Below are positions 1,090 through 31,300 of a DNA stretch of 64,000 nt, one piece after another. The notes under the pieces are model-generated. The model was not told where the DNA came from, ran no database searches, and worked only from the letters and a program-made list of their open reading frames with translations. A program made the translations under genes and the position numbers. Within the stretch, counting starts at the first letter, position 1, and each line of letters starts with the position of its first letter. The stretch comes from Novosphingobium sp. (GTDB lineage Bacteria; Pseudomonadota; Alphaproteobacteria; Sphingomonadales; Sphingomonadaceae), in the NCBI RefSeq assembly GCF_049240505.1, contig NZ_JBMLSM010000005.1, positions 7,015 through 71,014 on the forward strand, given 5' to 3'.

Positions 1090-4074
1090 GTGAAGATGAC
1101 GGCGAATCTGGTGCTTGGTGAAAAGTTTACCGTCGAATCCACCCCAACGACGACGCGCGGCTCGCCCAGCGTAACGCAGTTGGCTGATGGCAATATTGTG
1201 ATGGTGTTCCCCAGCGTCACCACGGCGGACGACGATCTCAATTCGGTCACCGCGCAGATTTTTACCGCAGGCGGGATCAAGATCGGTGCGGAAATCCAGC
1301 TGAACACCACCGAGGCGGGTGTTGAAGATCGCCCGCTTATCAGTGCGCTGCCCGGCGGCGGCTTCATCGCAGCATGGACCAGCAGCGATCTTTCTGGCGA
1401 AAGCACGGACGTTTTCGTGCGCGGGCAGGCGTTCGATGCTGCCGGAAACAAGGTGGGCGCAGAGCTTTCCTATCTCACCACCACGATCTTTACCGAATTC
1501 AGCCGCGATATCGCATTTCTGGCTGACGGCAAGCTGGTCGTATCATGGCTCGATACCGCTGCGAAAAAGATGCGCGCGCAGGTTTTCGATACCGATGGTG
1601 CGGCGGTCGGCTCTACTTTCGTCATTGCCTCGGCCCTTCCGTTAAGCGCGCAGGCCGAAATCGTGACCCGCGCCGATGGCAGCTTCGGCGTAATCACGAA
1701 CCATGCCGATGGTCTGACCTATCTGCGCAATTGCAGCGCCGCCGGTGTGGCCCTTGGCGGGCACATCAGCCTTGGTGGTAACTATTCGGGCTGGGATTTC
1801 GAAGCGCTGCCCGGTGGTGGTATGGTGGCCGTGGGCGTGGTGGCGCTGAACGGGCGGCAGGACATCTATCTTCAGCGCTTTGCCAGCAATGGCGCGGCTG
1901 TGGGCGGGCAGGTTCTGGTCAACGATCTGGACAATACCTACAACGAACTGCCCGATCTTGCGGTTTCCGCTGATGGTTCGTTCACCGTGGCGTGGCGGCG
2001 CCCGTCCTTCTACGTCAACGGGCAAGGCTTCATCGTCAGCGAAGGTTATGGCGTTACCGTCCAGACTTTCGACGCGAGCGGGGCAAAAGTGGGCGGCCAG
2101 TCATGGCTGGATCGCACTGGCGCGCAGCCCTATTTCGGCGTCGATATTGAAGCGCTGGCGGGCGGCGGCTTTTTCGCCGGGTGGTACGATCCGCGCTTCA
2201 ATGCGCAGGACACAGACGTTACCGGCATCAGGGCGCGCATCTTTGGCCCCAACCATGCACCGGAAATCACATCGGGCGATGGCGTAACAGCAACTTATAC
2301 CGTGTTTGAAAACACCACTGCGGTCACCACTGCCACGGCCAGCGACGGTGATGTGAACGCCAAGCTGGTCTGGTCGATCAGCGGCGGCGCGGATGCCGGG
2401 TACTTCACGATCAATGCGCAGACGGGCGCGCTGGCGTTCCGGTTTGCTCCCGATTTCGAGGGCACCGCGTTCCACGCCAACACTTATGCCGTGCAGATCA
2501 CCGTTTCCGATGGCCATGACACCGATGTGCAAGACGTGACGGTGAACGTGGCTGATGTGCGAGACGCGATGGTGTGGACCGGCACCTCTGGCGCCGACAC
2601 CATCATCGGTTCGGACTTCGCTGACAGCTTCAGCGGACTTGGCGGAAGCGATCATATCACCGCGCTGGGTGGTGACGACGTGATCGATGGCGGAACCGGT
2701 GCCGATACCATGATCGGTGGCACCGGGAATGACCGCTATATCGTGGATAATGCGGGCGATGTGGTGATCGAGGATCAGGATGCCGGGATCGATGAGGTCG
2801 TCTCCAGCGTCAGCCACACCCTTTCCGCCAATGTCGAAAGGTTGACACTTTCAGGATCGGCGGCGCTTTCCGCCACGGGCAACGCGCTGAGCAACCTGAT
2901 GGTCGGCAATCGCGGCGCGAACACGATGTTCGGGCTGGATGGCAACGATGTGATCAACGGCGGCGCGGGCAATGACGTAATTGATGGCGGCCTCGGTGCC
3001 GATACCTTGGGCGGAGACACCGGGAACGACACGCTTACCGGCGGTGACGGTGACGATACCCTGCTAGGCCACGCCAACGATGACCGGCTGTTTGGCGGTG
3101 CGGGCAACGATATGCTCGATGGCGGCACTGGCATTGATGCAATGGTTGGTGGCGCAGGCAACGATTGGTACTGGATCGATAACACTGCCGACACTGTAAC
3201 CGAGCAGGCCGACGAAGGGTTTGATATCGTACTGTCAAAGATCAGCACAACCCTTGCTGATAACGTGGAATATCTTCAGTTGCAGGGCACCACCGGCCTT
3301 GCGGGCACGGGCAATGCCATTGCTAACACCATTACCGGAAACGATGGTGCAAATGTGCTTTCGGGCCTCGGCGGGAACGATCACCTGCTTGGCTATTATG
3401 GCAACGACACGCTGGATGGCGGAATCGGCGACGACATGCTCGATGGCGGGTTTGGCGATGATCTCTTTGTGGTGGATGCCGTTGGCGACGTTTTGATTGA
3501 ACTGGAAGGCCAGGGCACAGATACCGTCCGCACGTCTGTCAGCCTTGGTGTGCTGGCGGCAAATGTCGAAAATGTCGTGCTGACGGGCATGGCCAACCTT
3601 TCAGGGACCGGCAACGACCTTGCCAATGTGCTGACCGGGAATGACGGCGCGAACGCGCTGTTCGGTCTTGAGGGCAAGGATACGTTGATCGGCGGCGCGG
3701 GGAATGATCGCCTTTCCGGTGGTGCGCAGGGCGATAGGCTGACCGGCGGAATCGGCGCGGATTCGTTCGTGTTCGATGTGCTTGGCCCCAGCGCGGACCG
3801 GGATACCATAACCGATTTTGCCAGCGGAACCGACCGTATCGAATTTGACCGATCGGTGTTCACCGCGTTTGCCGGGGATGCTGCCGGGCAGATTGCGGCA
3901 AGCGCATTTCATGTCGGCACGGCTGCGGCCACGGTGGATCACCACCTGATCTACAATCCGGCCACCGGTGCGCTGCTTTATGATGCCGATGGCAAGGGCG
4001 GTGCGGCACAGATCCACATCGCCATACTCACCGGACTGCCCGCCGTGAGCGCTGGCGATATCTGGCTGATTTAA
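1090..4074 (+). CDS. Large secreted RTX-type calcium-binding protein with N-terminal degenerate ~55-aa repeats and a cadherin-like module (probable T1SS substrate/adhesin)
   Basis: 994-aa ORF. The N-terminal ~400 aa carry recurring LADG..VV.W / ALPGGGF motifs. A cadherin-like block runs APEITSGDG...VTVNVADV. Many GGxGxD nonapeptide repeats follow (GGAGNDVIDGGLGADTLGG etc.). The C-terminal tail DRIEFD...LIYNPATGALLYDADG is typical of RTX proteins. Confidence 0.85.
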   Translation: MKMTANLVLGEKFTVESTPTTTRGSPSVTQLADGNIVMVFPSVTTADDDLNSVTAQIFTAGGIKIGAEIQLNTTEAGVEDRPLISALPGGGFIAAWTSSDLSGESTDVFVRGQAFDAAGNKVGAELSYLTTTIFTEFSRDIAFLADGKLVVSWLDTAAKKMRAQVFDTDGAAVGSTFVIASALPLSAQAEIVTRADGSFGVITNHADGLTYLRNCSAAGVALGGHISLGGNYSGWDFEALPGGGMVAVGVVALNGRQDIYLQRFASNGAAVGGQVLVNDLDNTYNELPDLAVSADGSFTVAWRRPSFYVNGQGFIVSEGYGVTVQTFDASGAKVGGQSWLDRTGAQPYFGVDIEALAGGGFFAGWYDPRFNAQDTDVTGIRARIFGPNHAPEITSGDGVTATYTVFENTTAVTTATASDGDVNAKLVWSISGGADAGYFTINAQTGALAFRFAPDFEGTAFHANTYAVQITVSDGHDTDVQDVTVNVADVRDAMVWTGTSGADTIIGSDFADSFSGLGGSDHITALGGDDVIDGGTGADTMIGGTGNDRYIVDNAGDVVIEDQDAGIDEVVSSVSHTLSANVERLTLSGSAALSATGNALSNLMVGNRGANTMFGLDGNDVINGGAGNDVIDGGLGADTLGGDTGNDTLTGGDGDDTLLGHANDDRLFGGAGNDMLDGGTGIDAMVGGAGNDWYWIDNTADTVTEQADEGFDIVLSKISTTLADNVEYLQLQGTTGLAGTGNAIANTITGNDGANVLSGLGGNDHLLGYYGNDTLDGGIGDDMLDGGFGDDLFVVDAVGDVLIELEGQGTDTVRTSVSLGVLAANVENVVLTGMANLSGTGNDLANVLTGNDGANALFGLEGKDTLIGGAGNDRLSGGAQGDRLTGGIGADSFVFDVLGPSADRDTITDFASGTDRIEFDRSVFTAFAGDAAGQIAASAFHVGTAAATVDHHLIYNPATGALLYDADGKGGAAQIHIAILTGLPAVSAGDIWLI

Positions 4075-4218: not shown

Positions 4219-5082
4219 TCATGCAACCATCGATCGCTTCGCCGCCGTCACGGTGTTGCTGAGCAGGCAGGCGATGGTCATCGGGCCTACCCCGCCCGGA
4301 ACAGGCGTTACCGCTTTGGCGTGGTCAAGTTCGTGCGTGGCGCAATCGCCAACGATCTTCGTGTTGCCATCGTGATCGACCACGCGGGTAATGCCCACGT
4401 CGATCACCACGGCCCCCGGCTTCACCCAGTATCCGCGCACCAGATGTGGCGCGCCAGCAGCGGCCACGATCACGTCGGCCTTGCGCGCCACATCGGGCAG
4501 GTCGCGCGTTTCGATGTGGGTGACGGTGACGGTCGCCTCACGTTCCAGCAGCAGCATCGAAACCGGCTTGCCCACGATGTTCGATTTGCCGATCACCACC
4601 ACGTTCAGTCCGCGATAGTCGTCGATGACGCTATCGAGCAGCAACATCACGCCCAATGGCGTGCAAGGCACCAGCCCGCCCGTCCCGGTAGAAAGCCGCC
4701 CGACATTCACCGGGTGGAACCCGTCCACATCCTTGCCCGGATTGATCCGGTCCAGCACAAACGCGGCGTCGATATGTTTGGGCAGCGGCAACTGCACCAG
4801 AATGCCATGCACGCCCGCATCAGCGTTCAGCGTATCGATCAGCGCCAGCACCTGTTCCTGCGGCGTCTCGGCGGGCAGGCGATGTTCGATAGACTGGATG
4901 CCCGCCTTGCGGCACTGCGCGATCTTGCGCCCGACATAGACTTCGCTGGCCGGATCGTTGCCGACCAGAATCACTGCCAACCCCGGCGCAGGCGCGCCTG
5001 CGGCCACCATCTCCGCCACATCCGCAGCGGTGCTGACCAGCACTTGCGCGGCCAGCGCCTTGCCATCGATAATCTGGGCCAT
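4219..5082 (-). CDS. folD: Bifunctional methylenetetrahydrofolate dehydrogenase / methenyltetrahydrofolate cyclohydrolase
   Basis: 287 aa. Starts MAQIIDGKALA and contains PASEVYVGRKIAQC, LPLPKHID and VIGKSNIVGKPV, matching FolD throughout. Confidence 0.93.
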   Translation of the reverse strand: MAQIIDGKALAAQVLVSTAADVAEMVAAGAPAPGLAVILVGNDPASEVYVGRKIAQCRKAGIQSIEHRLPAETPQEQVLALIDTLNADAGVHGILVQLPLPKHIDAAFVLDRINPGKDVDGFHPVNVGRLSTGTGGLVPCTPLGVMLLLDSVIDDYRGLNVVVIGKSNIVGKPVSMLLLEREATVTVTHIETRDLPDVARKADVIVAAAGAPHLVRGYWVKPGAVVIDVGITRVVDHDGNTKIVGDCATHELDHAKAVTPVPGGVGPMTIACLLSNTVTAAKRSMVA

Positions 5083-5137: not shown

Positions 5138-6667
5138 TCAATCGGTCTTTTCGGCAGCCTTTTCGAGAGACACCGCTTCGGGCACAACATCGGCCAGAAC
5201 GTGGGCCAGCGCCCGTTCGTTCAGGTCGCGCGCCTTGGCTTCGCTTTCCGCCTCGGTATAGCAGCGCAGTTCGGGCGCGTTGCCCGATGGGCGGAAGTGA
5301 ATCACGGCGCCATCGGCAAAGCTCATGCGATAGCCATCGGTCTTGTCGATAGCGGTCGGAAAGCCCGCGATTTCACCAAACAGACGCGCGATCCGCGCCA
5401 GTTGCTCGTCCTCGGCGCCGGATGAAAGCAGCGCGATCAGCGCCGCGCTGTGCGCCTGCGGAAAGTCCGCCACGCGATCGCTGAACGTGTAGCGCGGCGG
5501 CAGTTCCGCCACCACATCGGCAATCGGCTTGTCCTTTGCCGCCTGCACCACCGCCACGATCGGCAGCAGGGCATCGCGTGTCGGCAGCGCCGCCAGCGCG
5601 CCCACGGCAGAGCCGAGAAGGAACCCGCCGTTCGCTTCATACCCGCAGACGCAAGCCGCCGGATCGGCCTCAGCCGCCTCCATCATCGCCGCGATCACAT
5701 AGGGCGATCCGATGCGCGTGCGCACCACTTTGGGCACAGCCCCGCTCACCTCCAGCACGGTGTTGGAACTGACCGGCGTCACCGCCACGTCCGCACCCAC
5801 GGCCCGTGCGCAGAGCAAACCCACCACGTCTCCGCGCAGCCAGACGCCCTGTGCATCCGCCACCAGCGGACGATCGGAATCACCATCGGTGGAAATGATC
5901 GCATCGACCTTGTTTGCGGCTGCCCATTCCGCTGCCAATGCGATGTCCTCACCACGGATCGCTTCCGTGTCGACCGGCACGAACACCGTCTCGCGCCCGA
6001 AAGGTACAGCGGTGCCACCCAGCGCCGCCACCGCACGCGCCAGCACATCGCGCCCAACGGCAGTGTGCTGATAGATGCCCACCGTCAGTCCTTCCAGCGC
6101 ATCGGCCCCGAAATGCTCGACATAGCGGTGGATATAGGCCGGCACCACGTCGGTCACTTCCGGCAGGTCCACCGGCGCGAGCAAGCTGCCGTCATTGCCG
6201 AACCGTGCCGGATCGACCGTGACGCGCTGCGATACGATGCCCGCCTCGTCCGATTTCAAAACTTCACCGTGCGGGCGATAGAACTTGATGCCGTTGCGGT
6301 CTGCCGGAATGTGGCTGCCGGTGACCATGATCGATGGCATTGCATTTCCCATCGCGTGCAGGGCCAGCGCGGGCGTCGGCACTTTGCCGCAATAGACCAC
6401 CTCGCCCCCGCAATCGCGAACAGCCGTTGCGCAGGCGGAGATGATCCGGGGCGTGCTTTCGCGCAAGTCTCCGGCAATCGCCACGCTGTCTCCGTCGGAA
6501 AATTCTCCGATCTGGCGCAGATACTGCAAAAACGCCGTGGCATAGGCGTGGCACAGCTTGTCAGTCATGGCGTCGGCCAATCCGCGCACGCCGCTGGTGC
6601 CGAATGGCACCCCGCTTTGCACCATCAATTCCGCTACGGTCGATCCGCTAATATCGTTCATCGTCAA
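5138..6667 (-). CDS. Phosphomannomutase/phosphoglucomutase-family enzyme (alpha-D-phosphohexomutase superfamily)
   Basis: 509 aa. It has the GTSGVRG N-terminal motif, the TGSHIPADRNG phosphoserine loop, and the DGDSDR metal-binding loop. Confidence 0.85.
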   Translation of the reverse strand: MTMNDISGSTVAELMVQSGVPFGTSGVRGLADAMTDKLCHAYATAFLQYLRQIGEFSDGDSVAIAGDLRESTPRIISACATAVRDCGGEVVYCGKVPTPALALHAMGNAMPSIMVTGSHIPADRNGIKFYRPHGEVLKSDEAGIVSQRVTVDPARFGNDGSLLAPVDLPEVTDVVPAYIHRYVEHFGADALEGLTVGIYQHTAVGRDVLARAVAALGGTAVPFGRETVFVPVDTEAIRGEDIALAAEWAAANKVDAIISTDGDSDRPLVADAQGVWLRGDVVGLLCARAVGADVAVTPVSSNTVLEVSGAVPKVVRTRIGSPYVIAAMMEAAEADPAACVCGYEANGGFLLGSAVGALAALPTRDALLPIVAVVQAAKDKPIADVVAELPPRYTFSDRVADFPQAHSAALIALLSSGAEDEQLARIARLFGEIAGFPTAIDKTDGYRMSFADGAVIHFRPSGNAPELRCYTEAESEAKARDLNERALAHVLADVVPEAVSLEKAAEKTD

Positions 6668-7044
6668 TCACTTCCTATCAATCTCGTCAGACCGCCCCGA
6701 ACCTTTCCGACCGCGCGTTCAAGAACGCGGCGACTGGCGCAATGGTCCCGCCATCGGATTGATTTTGCCATTTGCCTCCCTCGGAGGATGGGTGTGTGTT
6801 TGCAAAGGTCAAAATCGTGAAATCCGCCAGGATCAAATATTTTTAGCCGCCCAAAAAGATTCCGACATTCGACCACGAAGGCACGTCATCTGTATTATAG
6901 CATCCCCATCGCACGTATTTGCGACACCGCTTGCCTGCGCCATTCCCTGCATTCCAGCAAAAAAAGTTCACGGACGGTTTCAACAAAGTAACCGAACGCA
7001 CTCCATTTATGCTGCATCTGCGAAAAAGGGAATTGCGATAACCG

Positions 7045-8751
7045 ATGGCCTCTCCGAATGCCCACGCCGTTTCTGGCGCGACGCATGACAATCCCCCGCG
7101 TTTCCGCGATTTCGTGCGATGGGCGCGGCAGGTGCTTGGCCCCGATGCAGGCTTCGTGCGGCTTGCGCTGCTCTATGGCGTGGCGATATCGCTGCTATCG
7201 CTGGCCACGCCCATTTCGGTGCAATTGCTGATCAATTCGGTGGCCAATACCGCCCTGCCCGCACCTTTGCTCACTCTGGCGGCCATCCTGCTGGCACTGC
7301 TGCTGCTGGCAGGCCTGCTCAGCGCGTTCCGCGTCCATCTGCTCGCCGCGTTCGAGCGGCGCTTTTTCGCGCGTCTTGTCGGTGAAATCACCCTGCGGGC
7401 GGTCCATGCGCAGAACCCTTTCTTCGTGGATTCGCGGCGCGGCGATCTGTTCAACCGCTTTTTCGACATGGGGCTGGTGCAGAAATCGCTGACCAGCCTG
7501 CTGATTGCCGGTTTCACCATCGTTCTGCAAAGCATCGTCGGCCTGATGGTGACCAGCTTCTATCACCCGTTCTTCCTGGCCTTCAATCTGGTGCTGGTGC
7601 TGACGGTGCTGGTGATCTGGCGCATCTGGGCCAATGCCTCCATTGCCAGCGCCGTGGCCAAGAGCCATGCCAAGCACGCTACCGCTCACTGGCTGGGCAC
7701 GGTCGGCAATTCCAACGGCATCTACAAATCCAGTCGGCATATGACTTATGCCATCGAACGATCGGATGAAGTGACCGCAGGCTATGTCGCCGCGCATCGC
7801 CGCCACTTCCGCTCTACCTTCAGCCAGACTATCGCGCTGCTGCTGCTCTATGCCTTTGCCAGCGCAGGACTTCTGGCGATGGGTGGCTGGCTGATTCTGC
7901 AGGGCGAATTGTCGATTGGCCAGCTTGTTGCCGCCGAACTGATCCTGTCGAGCGTGTTCTACGGCATCGCACAGCTCGGCACTTATCTTGAAGTGTTCTA
8001 CGATCTGTCCGCCAGCCTTGAAGAGCTGCACCTGTTCTGGGAAATTCCGCAGGAATCGCCGGTCGATGCCGATGCGCCTTCCCTGCCCGATGGCGCTATC
8101 CGCCTGCGCGATGTGCGCCACGCCGGGCATCACTTCGATTTTTTGGTGCCCGCGGGCGCACAAGTGGGCGTGCTGGCCGCGCCGGGGGTGGAACGCGGTC
8201 TTGTCACCCTGCTCAAGCGACTGGACCTGCCGCAAAGCGGTTTCGTTTCGGTCGGCGGGGCGGATCTCGGCACGTTCGACATGTACCGCCTGCGCTCCGA
8301 TGTGATCGTGCTGGACCGCCCCACTATCGTCGAGATGACCGTGCGCGAATACCTCGGCCTCAGCGCGCCGGGCCGCCCGGAAACGATGATCGAAGCGCTC
8401 GAACTCGTCGGTCTGGATCGCCGCGTCGGCGCGCTCGAAGGCGGGCTGGATGCGATGCTATCCGGCTCGGGCTGGCCACTCTCGGTGGGTGAGACGATGG
8501 CGCTGAAACTCGCAGGTGCGGTGCTGGCCCGGCCGCGCGTGCTGATGCTGTCCCCGCTTTACGACATGATCCCCCCTGCGCGGCTGACGCGCGTTCTGGC
8601 GGCATTGCGCGAACATGGCACCACCGTGCTGCAATTTACCGAGCGGCCCGAAGGCTTGCACCGCGATTCGTGGCTGTGGATCGGCACGGACGCGCAGCAC
8701 CAATCGACGGACCTGTCCGAAATTCTGCCCTTTGCCAAAGGGGAGCGTTGA
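7045..8751 (+). CDS. PrtD/HasD-like type I secretion ABC exporter homolog with degenerate (apparently non-catalytic) nucleotide-binding domain
   Basis: 568 aa. The N-terminal six-TM exporter domain is followed by an NBD-like fold (scaffold ..PQSGFVSVGGADLG.. conserved). The Walker A position reads GVLAAPGVERGLVT, the signature LSVGE, Walker B RVLMLSPL, and the H-loop TER. Confidence 0.75.
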   Translation: MASPNAHAVSGATHDNPPRFRDFVRWARQVLGPDAGFVRLALLYGVAISLLSLATPISVQLLINSVANTALPAPLLTLAAILLALLLLAGLLSAFRVHLLAAFERRFFARLVGEITLRAVHAQNPFFVDSRRGDLFNRFFDMGLVQKSLTSLLIAGFTIVLQSIVGLMVTSFYHPFFLAFNLVLVLTVLVIWRIWANASIASAVAKSHAKHATAHWLGTVGNSNGIYKSSRHMTYAIERSDEVTAGYVAAHRRHFRSTFSQTIALLLLYAFASAGLLAMGGWLILQGELSIGQLVAAELILSSVFYGIAQLGTYLEVFYDLSASLEELHLFWEIPQESPVDADAPSLPDGAIRLRDVRHAGHHFDFLVPAGAQVGVLAAPGVERGLVTLLKRLDLPQSGFVSVGGADLGTFDMYRLRSDVIVLDRPTIVEMTVREYLGLSAPGRPETMIEALELVGLDRRVGALEGGLDAMLSGSGWPLSVGETMALKLAGAVLARPRVLMLSPLYDMIPPARLTRVLAALREHGTTVLQFTERPEGLHRDSWLWIGTDAQHQSTDLSEILPFAKGER

Positions 8752-8753
8752 TC

Positions 8754-9911
8754 ATGGCAATCGGAAATACGCCATCGGGCACGCGCGCCGGTCATCACGA
8801 TCTGGGTGCGTTTCGCACCTTTTCCAGCCTGAAAGTACCCCGCACCACGCGCGTGCTGGGGCGGATGATCGCGATTACCATTCCGCTGCTGCTTGTGCTA
8901 CTGTTCCTTGTCAAATGGGTGCAAACCGCGCCGGGCCGGGGTGAGGTTATCGCGCTCAATCCCGAAGATCGCGTGCAGCAGGTGACGGCGCTTGTGCCGG
9001 GCCGCGTGGAAAAATGGTTCGTGGTCGATGGGCAGCAGGTGAAGAAGGGTGATCCCATTGCCCGCATCATCGACAACGATCCCGATCTGCTCGTGCGCCT
9101 TGGCGCTGAACGCGAACAGGTGATTGCGCAGATTGCCGCCGCAGAACAGGCGATGGCCACCGCCCGGCTCGACGTTAACCGCTATTCGCAGCTCTATGCC
9201 GAAGGTCTGGCCGCGCGCCGCGATTTCGAAGGCGCGCAGATCAAGGTCGCCGAACTCAACGCCAAGCTGGCTGAAACCCGCGCAAAGCTTAGCAAGGTCG
9301 ACATCGCGCTGGGCCGCCAGTCGGCGCAGCTGGTGCGCGCACCGCACGATGGCCGCATCCAGTCGCTCAACACTGCCGCCGGGGCTACGTTGGTCAGCGC
9401 GGGCGACATGCTGGCAACGCTGGCCCCGGACAATGCGCAGCGCGTGGTCGAGCTGCTGGTCGATGGCCGCGACGTGGCGCTGGTGCGGAAAGGACAGCCG
9501 GTGCGCCTGCACCTCGAAGGCTGGCCCGCCATCCAGTTCAGCGGTTGGCCTTCGGTGGCGCAGGGCATGTTCGATGGCCGCGTGCTGACCATCGATCCTT
9601 CGGCGCAGACCAGCGGGTTGTTCCGCGTGCTGGTCGAACCCATGCCGGGGAAGCCGGGCTGGCCGGACGAAAACTACATACGTCTCGGCTCGAAAGTTCG
9701 GGGTTGGGTCCAGATGGAAACCGTTACCATCGGCTATGAATTGTGGCGTCAGCTCAACGATTTCCCGCTGGAGTTTCCGACACCCGTTGATCCTGGCCCC
9801 TACAAGGGCACGGCGGCCAAGGCCCTGTCCGACAAGGCTGGCGCGAAGGCAAAGGGCGGCAAGTCGGGCAGCTATGACAGTGAATATAGCGGGAGCGAGG
9901 ACGGCAAATGA
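8754..9911 (+). CDS. HlyD-family membrane fusion (periplasmic adaptor) protein
   Basis: ATG lies 2 nt after the ABC stop. The product has one N-terminal TM segment (IAITIPLLLVLLFLV), a lipoyl-like motif (VEKWFVVDGQQVKKGDPIARI), a coiled-coil stretch and a beta-barrel part (VRAPHDGRI). The track ORF start at 8670 would overlap the ABC gene and is not used. Confidence 0.85.
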   Translation: MAIGNTPSGTRAGHHDLGAFRTFSSLKVPRTTRVLGRMIAITIPLLLVLLFLVKWVQTAPGRGEVIALNPEDRVQQVTALVPGRVEKWFVVDGQQVKKGDPIARIIDNDPDLLVRLGAEREQVIAQIAAAEQAMATARLDVNRYSQLYAEGLAARRDFEGAQIKVAELNAKLAETRAKLSKVDIALGRQSAQLVRAPHDGRIQSLNTAAGATLVSAGDMLATLAPDNAQRVVELLVDGRDVALVRKGQPVRLHLEGWPAIQFSGWPSVAQGMFDGRVLTIDPSAQTSGLFRVLVEPMPGKPGWPDENYIRLGSKVRGWVQMETVTIGYELWRQLNDFPLEFPTPVDPGPYKGTAAKALSDKAGAKAKGGKSGSYDSEYSGSEDGK

Positions 9912-9955
9912 TCCGCTCTTTGACGAAGGCCCTGGCGGCCTTTGAAAATACCCCT

Positions 9956-10052
9956 CGTCATTGCGAGGAGGCAAAGCCGACGAAGCAATCCAGAGCCATC
10001 GTGCAACCCGCTCTGGATTGCTTCCCCTCGCTGCGCAAGGCTCGCAATGACG
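9956..10052 (+). repeat. 97-bp palindromic REP/MITE-like element, copy 1
   Basis: Terminal inverted repeats are CGTCATTGCGAG...CTCGCAATGACG. Inner 14-bp arms are GAAGCAATCCAGAG/CTCTGGATTGCTTC. It is near-identical in its arms to the reverse complement of 38181-38275. Confidence 0.85.
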
Positions 10053-10078
10053 AAAGGAAAAGGCCGGGGCTTGCATTC

Positions 10079-11488
10079 ATGCTCGCTGGATGGGCCGCAA
10101 TGGCAGGCATCGTCCAGCCCGCGCTGGCGCAGGATAGGCCTGTTGCCTCTACACCCACCGACCGCCAGTTGACGCTGCGCGATGTGCTGGAATCCTCCGC
10201 CACACACGCGCCGCAGATCATCGAAGCGATGGCCCGCCAGCGGCAGGCGGATGCACGCGCACTCACGGCTGAAGGTGCGTTCGATCTGGTATTCAACGCC
10301 GAAGCCAATACCCGCCCGCTGGGCTATTATGATGGCTCCACCGCTGAAGTTTCGGCCTATCGCCCGATGCAGAACAATGGCGGGCAGATCTATGGCGGCT
10401 ATCGCGTGTCCACCGGCAGCTTTGCCAGCTACGATGGAAAACAGATCACCAACCAGTTGGGCGAACTGAAAGCCGGAGCAACGTTTTCGCTGCTGCGCGA
10501 CCGGCTGATCGATGAGCGGCGCGGGCGGCGCGCGGTTGCCGAAACCGATATCGAACTGGCCGCGCTCGACCGCGATCTGGTGGCCATCGGCGTGCAGCGG
10601 CGGGCGATCGAAGCCTATCAGCAGTGGGTTGCGGCGGGATTGCGCGTGCGCATCTACCGTGAGCTTTATGAACTGGCCGAAACCCGCCAGAAGTCGATTG
10701 AAGATCAGATCCGTCTGGGCGCGCGCCCGGCCATCCTTGGCGTGGAGAACCAGCAGAACATCATGCGGCGGAAGTCGCTGATGGTGCAGGCCGAACAGAA
10801 CCTGCAGTTGCAGGCCAACGCCCTGTCGCTGTTCCTGCGCGATGGTTTGGGCCAACCCATCGTGCCCGCCGCAGACCGCCTGCCCCCGCGCCTGACTGAT
10901 GGCGTCACCCCGCGCCTTGTCGATCAGAACACCGCGATTGCAGGACGCCCCGATTTGCAGGCGCTTGTTACGCGGATCGAACAGGCGGGGATCCGCGCCA
11001 GCCTTGCCGCCAACGAATTGAAGCCGCGGCTTGATGTGAAGGCTGAAGCATCGAAGGATTTCGGCCCCGGATCGCCCGTCCGCCGACCGCTGGAAGGCGC
11101 GGTGGGTGTGCGGTTCTCGGTCCCGCTGGAACGGCGCGCGGCCAAGGGACGGATTGCCGAAGTGGCGGCGGAGCAGGATGCGTTGCAGGTGCGGCTGCGT
11201 TTCCTTGAGGAGCAGATCGGCGTGGAAATCGCCAATTTGCGCACGCAGGTCGGCGGCGCTGAAAAGCTGGCGGGCCTTGCCACCGCCGAAGCTGCGCTGG
11301 CCCGCCGTATGGCCGAGGCGGAGAGGCGGCGGTTTACTTTGGGGGCGAGCGATTTCCTGCTGGTCAACCTGCGTGAGGAATCGCTGGCCGATGCCACCAT
11401 CCGCGAAATCGACGCAAACTACCGCCACGCCGCCGCGCAGGCAGAGCTTGTGGCGGCTTTGGCGGACCGCGAACAACTGCTTCTCTGA
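10079..11488 (+). CDS. TolC-family outer-membrane efflux/secretion channel
   Basis: Signal-peptide-like start MLAGWAAMAGIVQPALAQD. Two-fold repeat architecture with long helical segments, typical of the OEP family. The track ORF start at 9908 would translate through the repeat element, so the ATG at 10079 is preferred (start uncertain). Confidence 0.8.
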   Translation: MLAGWAAMAGIVQPALAQDRPVASTPTDRQLTLRDVLESSATHAPQIIEAMARQRQADARALTAEGAFDLVFNAEANTRPLGYYDGSTAEVSAYRPMQNNGGQIYGGYRVSTGSFASYDGKQITNQLGELKAGATFSLLRDRLIDERRGRRAVAETDIELAALDRDLVAIGVQRRAIEAYQQWVAAGLRVRIYRELYELAETRQKSIEDQIRLGARPAILGVENQQNIMRRKSLMVQAEQNLQLQANALSLFLRDGLGQPIVPAADRLPPRLTDGVTPRLVDQNTAIAGRPDLQALVTRIEQAGIRASLAANELKPRLDVKAEASKDFGPGSPVRRPLEGAVGVRFSVPLERRAAKGRIAEVAAEQDALQVRLRFLEEQIGVEIANLRTQVGGAEKLAGLATAEAALARRMAEAERRRFTLGASDFLLVNLREESLADATIREIDANYRHAAAQAELVAALADREQLLL

Positions 11489-11490
11489 AG

Positions 11491-11540
11491 TGCACCTGGA
11501 TGCACCTACGCGCACCTAAGCGCACCTAAGCGCACTTACC
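11491..11540 (+). repeat. Tandem array of five phased 10-bp repeats (TGCACCTGGA TGCACCTACG CGCACCTAAG CGCACCTAAG CGCACTTACC)
   Basis: Read directly from the sequence. The array occupies essentially the whole 52-nt spacer between the TolC stop (11488) and the convergent kinase-gene stop (11541). Confidence 0.9.
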
Positions 11541-12605
11541 TCACGCCGAACGGCAGTTTTCCATCGCTTCACGCGCCAATGCGGCAAGCCTTGGCAAAGC
11601 CTCTGCCCGTTCCTTCGCCTGCGCGTTGGAAGCGGTGCCGCGCAGCACCCGTCCCTTGATCCCGTGAAAGATCGCGGCGAGGCGGAAGAAGTTGAAGGCG
11701 AGGTAGAAATCCCAGTTGGCAATCTCCGTCCGCCCGGTGCGTTTGCAGTACGCGCCGATATATTCCGCTTCCGTCGGCAAACCCAGCGGCGCAGGGTCGG
11801 CCCCGCCCAGCCCCGCCACGATATCGCCCGGCATCCGGTACATCATCGCGTGGTAGGCAAAGTCCGCCAGCGGATGGCCGAGCGTGGACAGTTCCCAGTC
11901 CAGCACCGCCAGAACACGCGGTTCATTGGGGTGGAAGATCATGTTATCACAGCGAAAATCGCCGTGGACCACGCAAGTTTCATCGCCTTCGGGAATGGCC
12001 GTGGGCAGCCATTCGACCAGCGCATCCATATCGGGCAGGCGGCCAGCCATTTCGTCTTCGAGATACTGCTTCGACCAACGCCCGATCTGACGGGCAAAGT
12101 AGTTGCCGGGGCGGCCATAATCGCCCAGGCCCACCGCCTCATGATCGACCGAATGCAGCGCCGCGATCACGCGGTTCATCTCGTCGAAATAGGCCGCGCG
12201 TGCAGCCTTGGGAACTTCGGAAAACGCGGCGTCCCAGAACACGCGCCCTTCCACCATGTCCATCACGTAGAACGCGCTGCCGATCACGCTTTCGTCCTCG
12301 CAAACCGCGAAGATCTGCGCGACCGGAACGTCGGTGCCGTGGAGCGCGCGCTGCACCCGCGCTTCGCGCAACACATCGTGCGCGCCTTTCAACAAAGGCC
12401 CCGGCGGTTTCCGGCGCAGGACATAGCGCGCAGCGGGCGTGGTCAGGCGATAGGTCGGGTTTGACTGTCCGCCGTTGAACTGCTCGACGGTGAGCGGACC
12501 GGCAAAGCCCGCAACATTTGCCGCCAGCCAGCTTTCCAGCGCCACTTCATCAAACGCGACGCGAACCTTGCCCGCGCCGGTGTTTGCGTCGGCCAACCCA
12601 ATCAT
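11541..12605 (-). CDS. Phosphotransferase-family (APH-like kinase fold) protein, partner of the adjacent acyl-CoA dehydrogenase
   Basis: N-terminus reads LTVEQFNGGQSNPTYRL. It has the kinase catalytic loop VVHGDFRCDNMIF and DWELSTLGHPLADF. The start ATG at 12605 overlaps the upstream stop (ATGA). The track start at 12650 is less likely. Confidence 0.85.
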   Translation of the reverse strand: MIGLADANTGAGKVRVAFDEVALESWLAANVAGFAGPLTVEQFNGGQSNPTYRLTTPAARYVLRRKPPGPLLKGAHDVLREARVQRALHGTDVPVAQIFAVCEDESVIGSAFYVMDMVEGRVFWDAAFSEVPKAARAAYFDEMNRVIAALHSVDHEAVGLGDYGRPGNYFARQIGRWSKQYLEDEMAGRLPDMDALVEWLPTAIPEGDETCVVHGDFRCDNMIFHPNEPRVLAVLDWELSTLGHPLADFAYHAMMYRMPGDIVAGLGGADPAPLGLPTEAEYIGAYCKRTGRTEIANWDFYLAFNFFRLAAIFHGIKGRVLRGTASNAQAKERAEALPRLAALAREAMENCRSA

Positions 12606-14218: not shown

Positions 14219-15322
14219 GTGCAGAATCGAACGATCACCGCCTGGGCATGGGCTCATAAGTGGAGCAGCCTTGTCTGCACGCTGGCGCTGTTCATGCTGT
14301 GCCTGACCGGACTGCCGCTGATCTTCCATGATGAGATCGAGCACCTGTCCGAAAGTGGCGAGTTGCAGGGGGCTGCTTCGGCCCGGAGTGGGCAGCCGCT
14401 TGATGCGGTGGTGGCATCCGCGCTGGCGGACTATGCGCGCGCTGCCGGCAAGCCCGGCGTGCCGCTGTTCATCGGTTTCTCGCCCGACAATCCGTTGATC
14501 ACCGTAACAGTTGGGCCGCGTGCCGATGCGCCGGGATCTGAAATGCGGCTGTTCTCCTATGATCGAGCGAGCGGCGCGAACGTGGGTGAAGTTGTGGAGG
14601 ATGGGGTCATGGACTTCCTGCTGCAATTGCACACCGATCTGCTGCTGGGTCTGCCGGGAATGCTGTTCCTTGGCACGATGGCGGTGCTGTTCATCGTGGC
14701 GCTGGTGAGCGGAGTGGTGCTTTATGTGCCCTTCATGCGCCGCCTTGCCTTTGGCACGCTGCGGCACGACCGGTCGGCACGGGTGCGCAATCTGGATCAG
14801 CACAACCTGATCGGCGTGCTGGCGCTGGGCTGGATCGCGGTGATTGGCCTGACCGGCGCGATCAATGCTTTTGCCGACCCGCTTACCGATGTGTGGCGCG
14901 TGACCGAACTGGAAAGCATGGTGGCCAAGCAGGGCGGCCAGCCCGCGCTGGCCCCGGCGAACTATGGTTCGATCGACAGGGCAATGGCAGCGGCGCAGGC
15001 AGCGCTGCCGGGCCAGATGCCGCAGTTTATCGGCTTCCCCGGTGGCGCATGGTCATCATCCCGCCATTACGCGATCTTCTTTCAGGGCGATACGCCGCTG
15101 ACCAGCCATGTGCTGACCCCGGCGTTGGTCGATGCGGCCAGCGGCAGGCTGATCGATGTGCGCCCGATGCCCGCTTATATGCAGGCGCTGATGCTGTCGA
15201 AACCGCTGCACTTTGGCGATTACGGCGGGCTCATGCTCAAAATCGTATGGGCCTTGCTTACCGTGGGGACGCTGTGGGTACTGTGGACCGGACTGGTACT
15301 ATGGTGGGGCAAGCGCCGATGA
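14219..15322 (+). CDS. PepSY-associated TM-helix protein (PiuB/FoxB-like putative ferric-siderophore reductase)
   Basis: 367 aa with a GTG start. The N-terminus WAHKWSSLVCTLALFMLCLTGLPLIFHDEIE and four TM segments with conserved His are typical of the PepSY_TM family. It lies directly upstream of a siderophore-type receptor. Confidence 0.8.
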   Translation: MQNRTITAWAWAHKWSSLVCTLALFMLCLTGLPLIFHDEIEHLSESGELQGAASARSGQPLDAVVASALADYARAAGKPGVPLFIGFSPDNPLITVTVGPRADAPGSEMRLFSYDRASGANVGEVVEDGVMDFLLQLHTDLLLGLPGMLFLGTMAVLFIVALVSGVVLYVPFMRRLAFGTLRHDRSARVRNLDQHNLIGVLALGWIAVIGLTGAINAFADPLTDVWRVTELESMVAKQGGQPALAPANYGSIDRAMAAAQAALPGQMPQFIGFPGGAWSSSRHYAIFFQGDTPLTSHVLTPALVDAASGRLIDVRPMPAYMQALMLSKPLHFGDYGGLMLKIVWALLTVGTLWVLWTGLVLWWGKRR

Positions 15323-15519
15323 GCCGAACCGGCCAGCGGAGCGCAACAGCGATTCTTGGCGTTCCCCTATTCCTGGCCTTGCTGGCGCTGATCGGCCTTG
15401 TCCTGGGTCTGACCGGTGATGGCTGGCGCGATTTCGTTTCGGTGGCGCTGCTGGTGCTGCCCTGCCTGCTCTTTGTCATCCTCTGGCGTCGCCGCATCCG
15501 GCGCGCTGCCTTGAAATGA
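15319..15519 (+). CDS. Small two-TM membrane protein (66 aa), function unknown
   Basis: The ATG overlaps the PepSY stop (ATGA), and its stop overlaps the receptor-gene start region. It has two hydrophobic helices (ILGVPLFLALLALIGLVLGL, FVSVALLVLPCLLFVILW). Confidence 0.5.
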   Translation: MSRTGQRSATAILGVPLFLALLALIGLVLGLTGDGWRDFVSVALLVLPCLLFVILWRRRIRRAALK

Positions 15520-15530
15520 AAGCGAATATC

Positions 15531-17693
15531 ATGAACCGTCGCACATCGCTGCTGGTCGCTGCCGCGCTGCTTCCTCTTATGGCCACACCTGCCCTTGCGC
15601 AGGATGCTGCGGACAGTGACGGCGCCGACGACATCATCGTCAGTGCCAAGGCGCTGAACGCATCGCAGGTGATGGGCGAAGGCGATCTTGGCGCGCTGGG
15701 CCGCCAGCGGGCAGAGAACGTGCCTTTCACCATTCGTGCCTACAACGAAGCGCTGATTCTGAACCAGCAGCCTGTCACCCTGGGGCAGGTTCTGGAAAAC
15801 GATCCCACTGTTCGCACCAGCTACGGCTTTGGCAACGCTGCCGAACAGTTCGTGATCCGGGGCTTTGCCCTTTATGGTGACGACGTCGGCCTGAACGGGC
15901 TTTATGGTATCGCCCCGCGCCAGTTGATCGCTCCCGAACTATTCCAGTCGGTCGAAGTGTTGAACGGCGCATCGGCGTTCCTCAACGGTGCCGCCCCCGG
16001 TGGTTCGTCGATCGGCGGGGCGGTCAACCTCCAGTTGAAGCGCGCGGGTGATGTGCCGCTGACCCGCGCCACCCTTGGATATATCTCTGACCAGCATTTC
16101 GGCGGCAGCTTCGACATATCGCGCCGCATGGGCGATGATGGCGCTTTTGGCGTGCGCATAAATGGTGCGTTCCGCAGCGGCGATGTGGCAGTGGACGGCG
16201 AGTTCCGCCGAACTGCCGTGATCGGTGCGGCATTCGACTGGCGTGATGACAACACCCGCCTTTTCCTCGATCTTGGCTATCAGCGGGTGGAAGTGGATGG
16301 CCTGCGTCCCAAGGTGACGATCGGCACGGCCACGATCCCTACCGTGCCTGATGCCTCGGCCAACTATGCGCAGCCTTGGACCTACACTGATCTGCGCGAC
16401 ATTTTTGGCGTGCTGCGGTTCGAACAGGATCTGGGCGACAATGCCATGTTCCACATCAGCGCAGGCACGCGCGATGGCAGCGAAGAGGGCATCTATGGCG
16501 GCATCACCGTGTTGAACGCGACCACCGGTGCGGCCAACGGCAATGCCCTTTATGTGCCGCGCACGGACAACAACGAAGCCATCGAAGCGGGCTTCACGGT
16601 AAAGCTGGGCAGTGCGATCACGCATGAGTTCAACTTTGGCGGCAGCGCGGTGTGGCAGGTCAATCGCAACGCCTTCGATTTCCTTTATGGTCCCGGTTTT
16701 GCAGGCTTCGCCACCAACATCTATGATGCGCCTGAAGCGGCAATCCCGGCTTCGGCCTTTGTCGGCGGCGATCTGGATAATCCGTTCCCGATCAGCCGCA
16801 GCCGATTGCTGTCCGCTTTCGCGTCTGACACGGTGGGCCTCTTCGATGGCAAGGTGCTGATCACTGGCGGGCTTCGCCTGCAGGACATCGAGGTGAAAAG
16901 CTATAACGCCTATAACGGCGGCCTGTTGGACGGCACCTATCGGGAATCTGCGGCGACGCCGGTTGTCGGCCTGGTGGTGAAGCCACTGCCGGGGCTTTCA
17001 CTCTTCGCCAATCGCGTGGAAGCACTGCAACAGGGACCGACCGCGCCGATCGATGCGCTGGTGATCAATTCGGGCGAAGTGTTCGGGCCGATCCGGTCGA
17101 AGCAGTATGAAGTGGGCGGCAAGCTGCGCATGGGCCGGTTTGAAGCGGGGCTTTCGCTGTTCCGCATCGATCTGCCGGTCGCCTATTCGGTGGATGCCGG
17201 GACCGGCGACGGGCGCGTGCGCTTTGGCCTGAACGGGTTGCAGCGCAACGAAGGCGTGGAACTGACGCTCAATGGCGAACCGGTGGACGGCCTGCGCTTT
17301 ATCGGCGGTGCATCGGTGATCGATGCGAAGCTGCGCCGCACGCTGGGCGGGGCCAACCAGGGTAACCGCGCCGTGGGCGTGCCTGAATGGACCGGGAATG
17401 CCGGCGTGGAGTGGGATATCCCCTCAACCGGATTCACGCTGACGGGCCGCGTGGTTCACACTGGCAAGCAGGCCGTGAACGTAGCCAACACGCTGGAAAT
17501 CCCCGAATGGACACGCTTCGATCTGGGCGCACGTTTTGTCGCCAATGCTGGCGGCAAGCCACTGACGCTGCGCTTTGGCGTGGATAACGTGGCCAACAAG
17601 CGGTACTGGGCATCGGCATTCGATGTGTTCGCCGCCGCGCTGCTGCAGGGCCAACCGCGCACGTTCCGGGCCAGCGCGTCCATCGATTTCTGA
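15531..17693 (+). CDS. TonB-dependent siderophore receptor
   Basis: Signal peptide MNRRTSLLVAAALLPLMATPALAQ, TonB-box-like DDIIVSA, plug domain, and a beta-barrel ending ..FRASASIDF. An alternative ATG at 15516 is possible. Confidence 0.88.
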   Translation: MNRRTSLLVAAALLPLMATPALAQDAADSDGADDIIVSAKALNASQVMGEGDLGALGRQRAENVPFTIRAYNEALILNQQPVTLGQVLENDPTVRTSYGFGNAAEQFVIRGFALYGDDVGLNGLYGIAPRQLIAPELFQSVEVLNGASAFLNGAAPGGSSIGGAVNLQLKRAGDVPLTRATLGYISDQHFGGSFDISRRMGDDGAFGVRINGAFRSGDVAVDGEFRRTAVIGAAFDWRDDNTRLFLDLGYQRVEVDGLRPKVTIGTATIPTVPDASANYAQPWTYTDLRDIFGVLRFEQDLGDNAMFHISAGTRDGSEEGIYGGITVLNATTGAANGNALYVPRTDNNEAIEAGFTVKLGSAITHEFNFGGSAVWQVNRNAFDFLYGPGFAGFATNIYDAPEAAIPASAFVGGDLDNPFPISRSRLLSAFASDTVGLFDGKVLITGGLRLQDIEVKSYNAYNGGLLDGTYRESAATPVVGLVVKPLPGLSLFANRVEALQQGPTAPIDALVINSGEVFGPIRSKQYEVGGKLRMGRFEAGLSLFRIDLPVAYSVDAGTGDGRVRFGLNGLQRNEGVELTLNGEPVDGLRFIGGASVIDAKLRRTLGGANQGNRAVGVPEWTGNAGVEWDIPSTGFTLTGRVVHTGKQAVNVANTLEIPEWTRFDLGARFVANAGGKPLTLRFGVDNVANKRYWASAFDVFAAALLQGQPRTFRASASIDF

Positions 17694-27409: not shown

Positions 27410-27678
27410 AGTACTCTCTCCCTCAAAACAACCTGCGTCGATCGATGGACAACGCTGCCAACAGGGTTGGCAGCGTGGAGAGAGATTCGCCGGAAGTATG
27501 CTTCCGTGCAGCGATTCTGGCTCCTCCCCGTCCGCAGCATGACTTGCCACCGATCGTTATTCCCATGATCTTGCACACAGCTTTTGACAGCGCAAGCCAG
27601 AAAGGTGTCAAATTGTAACGAATTTGGAGTTCGGCATACGAAAACTAATCAAAATGACAGTCTGGTATGCACGGCCTG

Positions 27679-30027: not shown

Positions 30028-31260
30028 ATGATCCTGCTATCGGTGGCGATCCTGATCGTCATCTTTGCCGCTGCCGTCTGGCTGCCGGTCAACATGGGGC
30101 TGATCGGCCTTGCCGCTGCGCTGGGCCTTGGCGTTTTCGTCGGCGGCCTTTCGGTGAAGGACGTGCTGGCGGGCTTCCCGACCGATCTGTTCCTGACGCT
30201 GCTGGGCATCACGTACCTGTTCGGCATCGCCAGCCGCAACGGCGCGATAGACTGGCTGGTGGCGCGTGCTGCCGCGCTGCTGGGTCGGCATACGGCGCTC
30301 CTGCCCTTGCTCGTCTTCGTCGTTGCCGGCGTGCTGACAGCGCTGGGCGCGGTCGGCCCCGCTGCGGTTGCCGTGGTCGCGCCGATTGCGCTGCGCTTTG
30401 CCCGCAGTCATGGATTCTCGTCCCTGATGATGGGCCTGCTCGTGGTCCACGGCGCGCAGGCGGGCGCGTTTTCGCCCATCTCGATCTATGGCGGCATCAC
30501 CAACAAGGTTCTGGCGTCCAGCGGGATAGAGCCTGATCCGACGTATCTGTTCCTCGCCAGCGCCGCCTTCAACGCCGCGCTGGCGCTGGTGATCTGGGCC
30601 TTCTATGCGCGCCGCGAAGCTGCCAGTGGCGTTACGCACGAAGGCATCGCAGAAGCGCCCCCTGTTCTGGGCCGCGACGGTGCGTGGACGCTGGTCGGCC
30701 TTGCCGCGCTGGCCATCGGCGCACTGCTGTTCAAGATCGACATCGGCTTCATGGCGCTCATGGTGATCCTTGCGCTGGCCATCGTCGCCCCGCGCACACA
30801 GGACGGTGCGCTGAAACAGGTCGATTGGTCCACGATCCTGCTGATTTCGGGCATCGTCATCTATGTGGGCCTGATGGAAAGGCTGGGCACGCTGGCCGCT
30901 GTCAGCGACATGATCGGACAGGTCGGCTCACCGGCTCTGGCGGTATTGCTGCTGTGTTATCTGGCAGGCGTCGTCTCGGCTTTCGCTTCGTCCACCGCAT
31001 TGCTCGGCGTGATGATCCCGCTGGCGGTGCCGCTGCTGGCGGGATCGCAGCTATCGGTCATGGCGGTGATATCGGCGCTGTGCATCGCCAACACCATCGT
31101 CGATACGTCCCCCTTCTCGACCAACGGCGCGCTGATCGTCGGCAATTCGCCCGAAGCCGAACGTCCCGCAATGCTGCGCAAACTGCTGGGCTATGCTGCA
31201 TTGATCGTGGGCGTGGGGCCGCTGCTGGCCTGGGCGGTGTTTGTGCCGATCTTTCAATAG
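30028..31260 (+). CDS. matC: MatC-type dicarboxylate (malonate) carrier
   Basis: 410 aa, polytopic. GFPTDLFLTLLGITYLFGIA..GAIDWL and VVHGAQAGAFSPISIYGGITN resemble the MatC family as I recall it. GGGAGGGGG lies upstream of the ATG at 30028. Confidence 0.7.
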   Translation: MILLSVAILIVIFAAAVWLPVNMGLIGLAAALGLGVFVGGLSVKDVLAGFPTDLFLTLLGITYLFGIASRNGAIDWLVARAAALLGRHTALLPLLVFVVAGVLTALGAVGPAAVAVVAPIALRFARSHGFSSLMMGLLVVHGAQAGAFSPISIYGGITNKVLASSGIEPDPTYLFLASAAFNAALALVIWAFYARREAASGVTHEGIAEAPPVLGRDGAWTLVGLAALAIGALLFKIDIGFMALMVILALAIVAPRTQDGALKQVDWSTILLISGIVIYVGLMERLGTLAAVSDMIGQVGSPALAVLLLCYLAGVVSAFASSTALLGVMIPLAVPLLAGSQLSVMAVISALCIANTIVDTSPFSTNGALIVGNSPEAERPAMLRKLLGYAALIVGVGPLLAWAVFVPIFQ

Positions 31261-31300
31261 GATTCTTGCCATTGCGCAAGCGTTCGACAATGCTGCGCCG

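Follow-up and report, generated by a model that had tools for sequence, protein, structure and literature searches.

A three-gene pump of the ABC fold with a conserved dead ATPase domain in Novosphingobium: comparative evidence for probable ATP-independent efflux

ABC exporters are defined by the ATP-driven dimerization of their nucleotide-binding domains (NBDs). The locus studied here raises the question of what a protein with the fold of an ABC exporter does when each of its ATPase motifs has been replaced. It occupies positions 7045–11488 of a stretch of 64,000 nucleotides (nt) from a Novosphingobium sp. genome (GCF_049240505.1, contig NZ_JBMLSM010000005.1, positions 7,015–71,014 of the forward strand). 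This whole stretch is referred to as the window in the following; all positions are those of the window, and the locus as well as the ORFs at 1090–4074, 21919–23907, and 31241–34174 lie on its forward strand. The locus consists of three genes, which code for an inner-membrane protein with an ABC-exporter fold, an adaptor (membrane fusion protein, MFP), and an outer-membrane factor (OMF) of the TolC/OEP family. A first-pass annotation, made from the sequence without database searches, had described them as a type I secretion system (T1SS)-like ABC/HlyD/TolC set. According to our analysis, their products make up a tripartite pump of the ABC type whose pseudo-ATPase is conserved. We put the probability that this pump works as an ATP-independent small-molecule efflux system, with the proton-motive force (PMF) as the probable source of energy, at roughly 60%.

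The first gene (7045–8751) is an intact open reading frame (ORF) that encodes 568 amino acids (aa) and ends with a TGA stop codon at 8749–8751. The six transmembrane (TM) helices and the NBD fold that had been assigned to its product were confirmed by translation, AlphaFold2 modeling, and Foldseek. The transmembrane domain (TMD), as delimited by the modeled helices and hydropathy, covers residues 1–335 (7045–8049) and contains six long helices at approximately residues 41–67 (TM1), 74–96 (TM2), 151–171 (TM3), 176–197 (TM4), 259–285 (TM5), and 291–313 (TM6). An NBD-like pseudo-ATPase domain, recognized by the secondary-structure pattern of an NBD in the AlphaFold2 model, follows at residues 351–568 (8095–8748), and the predicted local distance difference test (pLDDT) score is ~90 over residues 350–560. 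The best PDB matches of the model were HlyB (8dck_A ranking first), PCAT1, TmrAB, and TM287/288. ABC_membrane was the sole Pfam domain found in the protein (35 bits vs. a cutoff of 28); no match to ABC_tran or to SbmA_BacA (PF05992) was obtained at E < 0.01.

The ATPase motifs were paired by an HMMER alignment of the 568-aa protein with HlyB (PDB 8dck). This alignment, together with the missing ABC_tran match, bore out the earlier observation that every motif is degenerate. The Walker A relic at residues 375–388 (8167–8208) reads GVLAAPGVERGLVT, compared with GIVGRSGSGKSTLT in HlyB, and Gly-Lys-Ser is replaced by Glu-Arg-Gly. The signature motif LSGGQ of HlyB corresponds to LSVGE at residues 479–483 (8479–8493). 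The Walker B relic RVLMLSPL, residues 498–505 (8536–8559), is the counterpart of KILIFDE in HlyB, with Ser-Pro in the place of Asp-Glu; the coordinates given in the first-pass annotation for these three motifs were all correct. The D-loop residue Asp507, which follows the Walker B relic (8536–8565 when included), is kept and is invariant in a 40-sequence alignment of closer orthologs. In the Q-loop relic VLDRPTIV (8308–8331; VVLQDNVLL in HlyB) Gln is absent, as had been reported, but its position aligns with Asp424 and not with Arg425. The loss of the H-loop His also held: in the relic VLQFTERP (8626–8649), Glu533 aligns with the His of sister proteins that read ..ATH.. at this site. As judged from the alignment and the structure model, the NBD-like domain keeps its fold but is devoid of every residue needed to bind and hydrolyze ATP, and transport would therefore not be driven by ATP hydrolysis in this protein.

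A homology search with the 568-aa protein retrieved 1978 proteins at E < 1e−5. The best 120 of these originated from sphingomonads, Phenylobacterium, and a record named Roseomonas, and a frequent name among them was “ABC transporter transmembrane domain-containing protein”. The nearest relatives belong to Novosphingobium (94–96% identity). When one genome per species was scanned, 578 of the genomes contained relatives, among them genomes of Sphingomonadales, Phenylobacterium, and Xanthomonas (62% identity). The dead motifs were common to all 16 aligned orthologs (60–94% identical); comparison of the motifs among orthologs had been proposed in the first-pass annotation as a means to tell a conserved pseudo-ATPase from decay. 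The consensus of these orthologs reads VVAAPGVER, VLDRP, LSVGE, VLxLSPLYD, and LQFTxRP, with minor variation, while the sequence of the Walker A relic is not conserved across the wider degenerate clade in the alignment of 150 representatives described below. For the window protein and nine Novosphingobium orthologs, the ratio of nonsynonymous to synonymous substitution rates (dN/dS) was 0.10–0.24 in the NBD-like domain and 0.05–0.18 in the TMD. The low ratio in the dead domain therefore indicates that this domain is under purifying selection, and the dead motifs are, on this comparative evidence, a conserved state and not decay. Wherever a fetched locus included sufficient flanking sequence, whether from alphaproteobacteria or gammaproteobacteria, the ABC-like gene was followed by the MFP and OMF genes in this order, and the same colinearity was found for a relative with 36% identity.

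The adaptor gene (8754–9911; 385 aa) starts with an ATG at 8754, which confirms the 2-nt gap to the stop codon of the ABC-fold gene that had been noted before. A Shine-Dalgarno-like element, GGGGAG, is situated at 8740–8745. The OEP/TolC-family ORF (9908–11488) begins with an ATG at 9908 that overlaps the stop codon of the adaptor gene (9909–9911), and its product matched Pfam OEP with 88.3 bits in two repeats. The ABC-fold gene is translationally coupled to the adaptor gene and the TolC-like gene. The start of this OMF gene is ambiguous, with candidates at 9908, 10001, and 10079; a signal-like stretch comprises residues 53–74.

The adaptor contains the Pfam domains HlyD_3, Biotin_lipoyl_2, and HlyD_D23. 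In NCBIfam it scored 94.8 with RND_mfp, for which the cutoff is 94.9, and 73.2 with type_I_hlyD (TIGR01843), for which the cutoff is 208.65. Its AlphaFold2 model shows a TM helix (residues 30–52), a lipoyl domain, a beta-barrel, a disordered C-terminal tail, and no membrane-proximal domain. The alpha-hairpin is short, with helices at residues 112–149 and 155–189 of ~38 and 35 residues, respectively. Foldseek ranked MacA, ZneB, AcrA, and MexA first, followed by EmrA, and HlyD was not among the top 50 matches. In its modeled structure the adaptor thus resembles MacA and AcrA and not HlyD. Both partners of a tripartite pump are co-encoded with the inner-membrane protein, namely an adaptor with lipoyl, hairpin, and beta-barrel elements and an OEP-family channel. 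Set against the recognized energized classes of inner-membrane components (active ABC, RND, MFS, PET), the window protein shows the fold of the ABC class but none of its ATPase motifs. MacAB-TolC is also an ABC-type tripartite pump, and MacA is the closest structural match of the window adaptor. However, MacB belongs to the type-VII ABC proteins, its NBD is active, and much of it forms a large domain in the periplasm, and MacA has the membrane-proximal domain that the window adaptor lacks. The C-terminal tail of the adaptor (9786–9908, residues ~345–385), which was modeled as disordered, is of low complexity and rich in Lys, Gly, and Ser (…KGTAAKALSDKAGAKAKGGKSGSYDSEYSGSEDGK). For most relatives, the part of the adaptor that tblastn could match ends before this tail, and the gap to the next gene is of variable length.

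The usual upstream neighbor of the module is an orthologous LysR gene, which lies directly 5′ of the module and has the same orientation in the majority of loci that do not belong to the Novosphingobium subclade of the window (for example at L002:9022–9915 and L001:9013–9912, and in ~44–55 other loci). In the window and its Novosphingobium subclade no LysR gene is located upstream of the module, and pgm and folD are found there instead. The LysR protein matched OxyR best (171 bits vs. a cutoff of 329). Redox control by peroxide sensing was considered for this regulator and rejected, as no cysteine is conserved among 44 orthologs.

Among the readings that had been put forward for the module, the comparative data favor an ATP-independent use of the ABC scaffold by a conserved pseudo-ATPase. 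We propose that the three gene products would form a tripartite efflux system spanning the envelope, in which the pseudo-NBD most likely serves as a structural or dimerization module and the energy source is most likely the PMF acting on the TMD. Candidate coupling sites are the YHP turn (Y173-H174-P175; 7561–7569), which is located between TM3 and TM4 at the periplasmic face and is a hallmark of the clade by conservation and in the model, and Glu298 in the TM6 motif GQLVAAELI (7918–7944). This Glu is embedded in the membrane and is a candidate for the coupling of protons or substrate; in the AlphaFold2 model it is found within TM6, about two helical turns from the periplasmic end, and the YHP turn and the conserved residues Q60, Q162, and N181 are close by. 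A small molecule is a more likely cargo than the repeats-in-toxin (RTX) protein encoded upstream of the module (see below), and expression would ancestrally have been under the control of the adjacent LysR regulator. The adaptor type, the LysR neighbor, and the fact that the RTX gene is unlinked to the module in nearly all loci point to inducible small-molecule efflux and not protein secretion. For this pump we infer a homodimeric state, coupling to the PMF, the direction of transport, and the nature of the substrate.

Transport by the window protein may be secondary-active, and three lines support this: SbmA, whose evolutionary origin is an ABC membrane domain, is a precedent for proton-driven transport (PMC13316013); MsbA-MD, which is devoid of the NBD, carries out ΔpH-dependent efflux of ethidium and chloramphenicol (PMC4979069); and Glu298 is invariant. 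The likeness to SbmA/BacA (SLiPT) lies in a membrane domain of the ABC-exporter type that derives from a full ABC transporter and has no ATPase; SbmA is driven by the proton gradient (PMC13316013). In contrast to the proposed pump, SbmA is an importer, has no adaptor or outer-membrane partner, and has lost the NBD completely, whereas the window protein keeps a dead NBD and only its fusion relatives (see below) have lost this domain. The window protein is not a member of the SbmA family, as no PF05992 match was obtained, but by analogy it may work like SbmA. MsbA-MD and LmrA-MD show that a type-IV TMD alone is capable of ΔpH-dependent efflux (PMC4979069). However, both are laboratory constructs of ATP-dependent pumps, whereas the window family lost its ATPase function in nature and long ago, and this loss has become fixed throughout a large clade. 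Among tripartite systems, the LysR-regulated pumps with non-RND inner-membrane components AaeR-AaeXAB, FuaR-FuaABC, and EmrAB-TolC share with the module the inducible layout of a regulator, an inner-membrane transporter, a membrane-anchored adaptor, and an outer-membrane factor. They are also PMF-driven and carry small molecules, as proposed here for the window pump, but their inner-membrane component is of the PET/FUSC or MFS type and does not have the ABC-exporter fold.

The distribution of degenerate and less degenerate forms was followed by an exhaustive HMMER search of 1.84 billion representatives, which yielded 1130 matches at E < 1e−30; the best 150 of these were aligned. In this set, all representatives of 540–590 aa, down to ~29% identity, are fully degenerate in Walker A, signature, Walker B, and H-loop. 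The next tier of sequences (P0180–P0270, e.g., P0190, P0219, and P0250) is mostly 700–770 aa long, has kept Walker A, and carries an N-terminal extension of ~170 aa without a Pfam domain. Of 47 such Walker-A-positive sisters none has LSGGQ, while the Q-loop Gln is present in 6, the Walker B Asp-Glu in 17, and the H-loop His in at most 18. The alignment thus displays a graded erosion of the ATPase motifs among these sisters. None of seven representatives scanned reached an NCBIfam cutoff, and for the Walker-A-positive sisters this result was obtained with three scanned representatives. In the locus of one Walker-A-positive sister (L087:5500–10459, the one contig of three that was long enough), the ABC gene is followed by genes for a 464-aa adaptor-like and a 466-aa OMF-like protein.

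The hallmarks of the TMD are common to all tiers and comprise P56, N137-R138, Q146-K147, Y173-H174-P175, S207, K210, Q261, G280-G281, and GQLVAAE298. All 67 degenerate representatives carry E298 (100%), as do 98% of the 47 Walker-A-positive ones, and the residue also occurs in proteins that lack the NBD altogether. The YHP turn is similarly well preserved, with Y in 99%, H in 97%, and P in 91% of the degenerate short forms and values of 98–100% in the Walker-A-positive sisters, and it is kept in the NBD-less proteins. The latter are fusions in which the six-TM domain is joined directly to a complete adaptor, including the adaptor’s own membrane anchor (P0252, P0256). When such proteins were searched for specifically, full-length NBD-less fusions came to light in at least 20 clusters (including P0252, P0256, and P0271–P0289); they are 658–700 aa long and 42–52% identical. 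These clusters stem from NCBI, JGI, ENA, and Logan, and one of them is encoded on a contig of 2.3 Mb. The fusion P0252 was found on two independently assembled contigs with the same neighbors (L083:2253–4337 and L084:1967–4051). Its adaptor part is 45% identical to the window adaptor, and the gene that follows it in L083 encodes a protein 35% identical to the window OMF. A motif within the adaptor, EGWPxxQFSGWPS (9516–9557, residues 255–268), is almost invariant among the window protein and 21 fusion proteins.

A simple neighbor-joining tree of the TMD, calculated with a single outgroup and 20 bootstrap replicates, placed the short degenerate forms and the fusions in one clade of 86 representatives without any Walker-A-positive member (19 of 20 replicates). 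Degeneration therefore preceded the deletion of the NBD, and the position of the fusions inside the degenerate clade shows that the NBD is dispensable in part of this clade. We tentatively suggest that this clade may have changed in nature, step by step, from primary-active ABC export to secondary-active transport by a tripartite pump that is driven by protons, a scenario that is plausible but far from certain. Four extant stages would then be represented by the Walker-A-positive sisters with eroded motifs, by forms with a dead but retained NBD such as the window protein, by the complete loss of the NBD, and by the fusion of the TMD with the adaptor.

The role of ABC membrane domains as secondary transporters has, to our knowledge, long been debated mainly on the basis of engineered truncations (LmrA-MD, MsbA-MD) and of one natural case, SbmA. 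The family described here offers a large natural test set for this debate, with intermediate forms and three partner proteins, and it can be approached genetically in members of Novosphingobium, Sphingomonas, and Xanthomonas that are culturable. If PMF coupling can be shown, or if the transition scenario is correct, these systems would constitute a further energization class of tripartite efflux pumps that combines the ABC fold with independence from ATP. Full-text literature searches found no description of this family, and the accessible part of a Chem Rev review of tripartite systems makes no mention of a fully degenerate ABC component.

Several points weigh against PMF-driven efflux by the 568-aa protein. 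Glu298 is equally conserved in the Walker-A-positive sisters and so is not specific to the ATP-independent state, and we infer PMF coupling by analogy and from this one conserved carboxylate. The homodimeric state is assumed. A partner ABC protein may be encoded far from the module, the scan for such proteins having covered the flanks of the loci and the 64-kb window, and in Xanthomonas a canonical ABC exporter that scores as MsbA_rel is indeed encoded two genes upstream of the module. Finally, the strong selection on the pseudo-NBD shows that this domain has some function, which, from what the sequences reveal, could be the binding of a ligand or a partner.

The last point leads to the rival that survives best, although we regard it as unlikely, namely that the complex is not energized at all. 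The three proteins might form a passive or gated conduit, an envelope tether, a scaffold, or a sensor, in which the ABC-fold protein anchors and gates the duct of adaptor and TolC-like channel and the pseudo-NBD has a regulatory or ligand-binding function. Purifying selection on the pseudo-NBD would fit such a binding or regulatory role, an energy-coupling motif is not demonstrable, and the best-conserved TMD motifs lie at the periplasmic side, near the adaptor. However, across the deep degenerate clade only positions of the fold core are conserved in the NBD-like domain, and a new shared ligand-pocket motif was not found in it; the domain can also be deleted, as in the fusions. Furthermore, type-IV TMDs are capable of secondary transport on their own (PMC4979069), and the LysR-controlled layout of three genes is typical of inducible efflux systems such as FuaR-FuaABC (PMC3517613).

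An obligate heterodimer, in which the dead half pairs with a canonical ABC half-transporter that is encoded elsewhere and supplies the ATPase, had also been suggested in the first-pass annotation. It would be an extreme version of the arrangement in TM287/288, TmrAB, and BmrCD. Heterodimeric exporters in which one of the sites is degenerate are well established (PMC7756269). The three named transporters share the fold of the window protein and have non-consensus residues in Walker B, signature, and H-loop, but both of their subunits keep a Walker A motif, one of their sites is competent, and their genes form an adjacent pair. The window protein, in contrast, is encoded by a single gene without a paired gene and has lost all motifs.

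A partner was searched for with regular expressions for Walker A and LSGGQ in all ORFs of 82 loci with 8-kb flanks and of the 64-kb window; the search was confined to these regions, which leaves some room for a distant partner. A canonical ABC gene was located within 8 kb of the module in only 8 of the 82 loci, and among the window ORFs of 150 aa or more none contained a GxxGxGK[ST] or LSGGQ-type motif. In Xanthomonas, the gene order is canonical ABC exporter (605 aa), LysR, pseudo-ABC, adaptor, and OMF (L063:5072–7891 from Xanthomonas arboricola, and also L068, L074, and L076), so that the canonical gene lies just upstream of the LysR gene. This exporter scored 871 bits with MsbA_rel (cutoff 780), a housekeeping family, and among the fetched loci such a neighbor is confined to Xanthomonas and missing from the sphingomonads.

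In an ABC dimer, each ATP site is built jointly by the two NBDs, one of which contributes Walker A and Walker B and the other the signature. A subunit without Walker A, Walker B, and signature would therefore disable both sites, and rescue by a partner appears mechanistically unattractive. Moreover, fusions of TMD and adaptor without any NBD nest within the same clade. We thus found no positive evidence for a heterodimer and consider it rather improbable, slightly more so than an unenergized complex.

A third rival takes the module as a T1SS dedicated to the RTX/cadherin-repeat protein (994 aa) that is encoded 3 kb upstream at 1090–4074. The earlier proposal of an RTX protein at this position proved correct, with a HemolysinCabind match of 138 bits. 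HlyB is the closest relative of the ABC-fold protein by sequence and structure, and no other T1SS ABC gene exists in the window. T1SS ABC exporters (HlyB, PrtD, LssB) have the same type-IV ABC-exporter fold, with the window protein closest to TIGR01846 and 8dck by sequence and to 8dck_A by fold. A T1SS with HlyD and TolC also has the same three-gene layout of ABC protein, adaptor, and outer-membrane factor, and PrtD, like the window protein, has no N-terminal C39 or C39-like domain.

The role of the RTX protein as a substrate, however, fared poorly. By tblastn against the loci, an RTX gene was detected next to the module at full length only in L004, a close relative, and as a match to a 54-residue C-terminal remnant in L003; all other loci gave no match, so that the RTX gene is not a conserved neighbor. 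In the window itself, two housekeeping genes on the opposite strand, folD (4219–5082) and a phosphoglucomutase-family gene (5138–6667), separate it from the module. As no ORF of 150 aa or more with a Walker A or LSGGQ-type motif was found in the window, the secretion system of the RTX protein must be encoded elsewhere. The T1SS ABC models used as a test of family membership (TIGR01846, TIGR01842, TIGR03375) gave scores far under their cutoffs: type_I_sec_HlyB (TIGR01846), the top NCBIfam model, reached 108.4 bits (cutoff 725.55), LssB 94.1 (693.1), and PrtD 66.5 (510.15). Known T1SS require ATP hydrolysis by their ABC component (PMC8277102).

The window module thus differs from T1SS in its dead ATPase motifs, its scores below cutoff, and its adaptor with a short hairpin, and its family differs in having LysR as the conserved neighbor and no conserved gene for an RTX or other substrate. 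In summary, the closest known proteins to the ABC-like protein by sequence and fold are T1SS and PCAT exporters, yet it departs from T1SS in the defining features of family score, an active NBD, an HlyD-type adaptor, and a linked substrate. Of the label “T1SS-like ABC/HlyD/TolC set”, the three-gene set of ABC, adaptor, and TolC-like proteins is real, while the assignment to T1SS is weak and the adaptor is not HlyD-like. We therefore consider dedicated secretion of the RTX protein by the module very unlikely. Very recent decay of an exporter gene in this strain, for which the loss of the motifs itself but nothing further could be cited, is refuted by the intact ORF, the conserved order of the three genes, the presence of the same dead motifs in orthologs of other genera and classes down to ~60% identity, full degeneracy down to ~29% identity, and the dN/dS of 0.10–0.24.

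Hundreds of genomes name the genes of this family “ABC transporter ATP-binding protein” or even “NdvA”. It is probable that the encoded proteins do not bind ATP and do not take part in type I secretion. For sphingomonads, xanthomonads, and marine gammaproteobacteria, the numbers of T1SS and of ABC efflux pumps that are derived from genomes would be inflated by this probable mislabeling.

The genes that flank the module, for the phosphoglucomutase-family protein and FolD upstream and an APH-family kinase downstream (reverse strand, identified by a profile scan), are unrelated to it. The phosphoglucomutase-family gene, on the strand opposite to the module, is separated from the ABC-fold gene by an intergenic stretch of 377 nt (6668–7044), which is the presumed promoter region as read from the sequence; a scan of 6600–11700 for promoters and terminators gave matches at chance level only. 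Farther downstream, a 662-aa ORF at 21919–23907 has no Pfam match at E < 1e−5, and TPR repeats together with a caspase-like CHAT domain are present in the 977-aa product of a gene at 31241–34174. Three genes for TonB-dependent receptors occur within 25 kb (15516–17693, 25175–27550, and 35534–38086), and a PepSY_TM gene (14219–15322) is located just upstream of the first.

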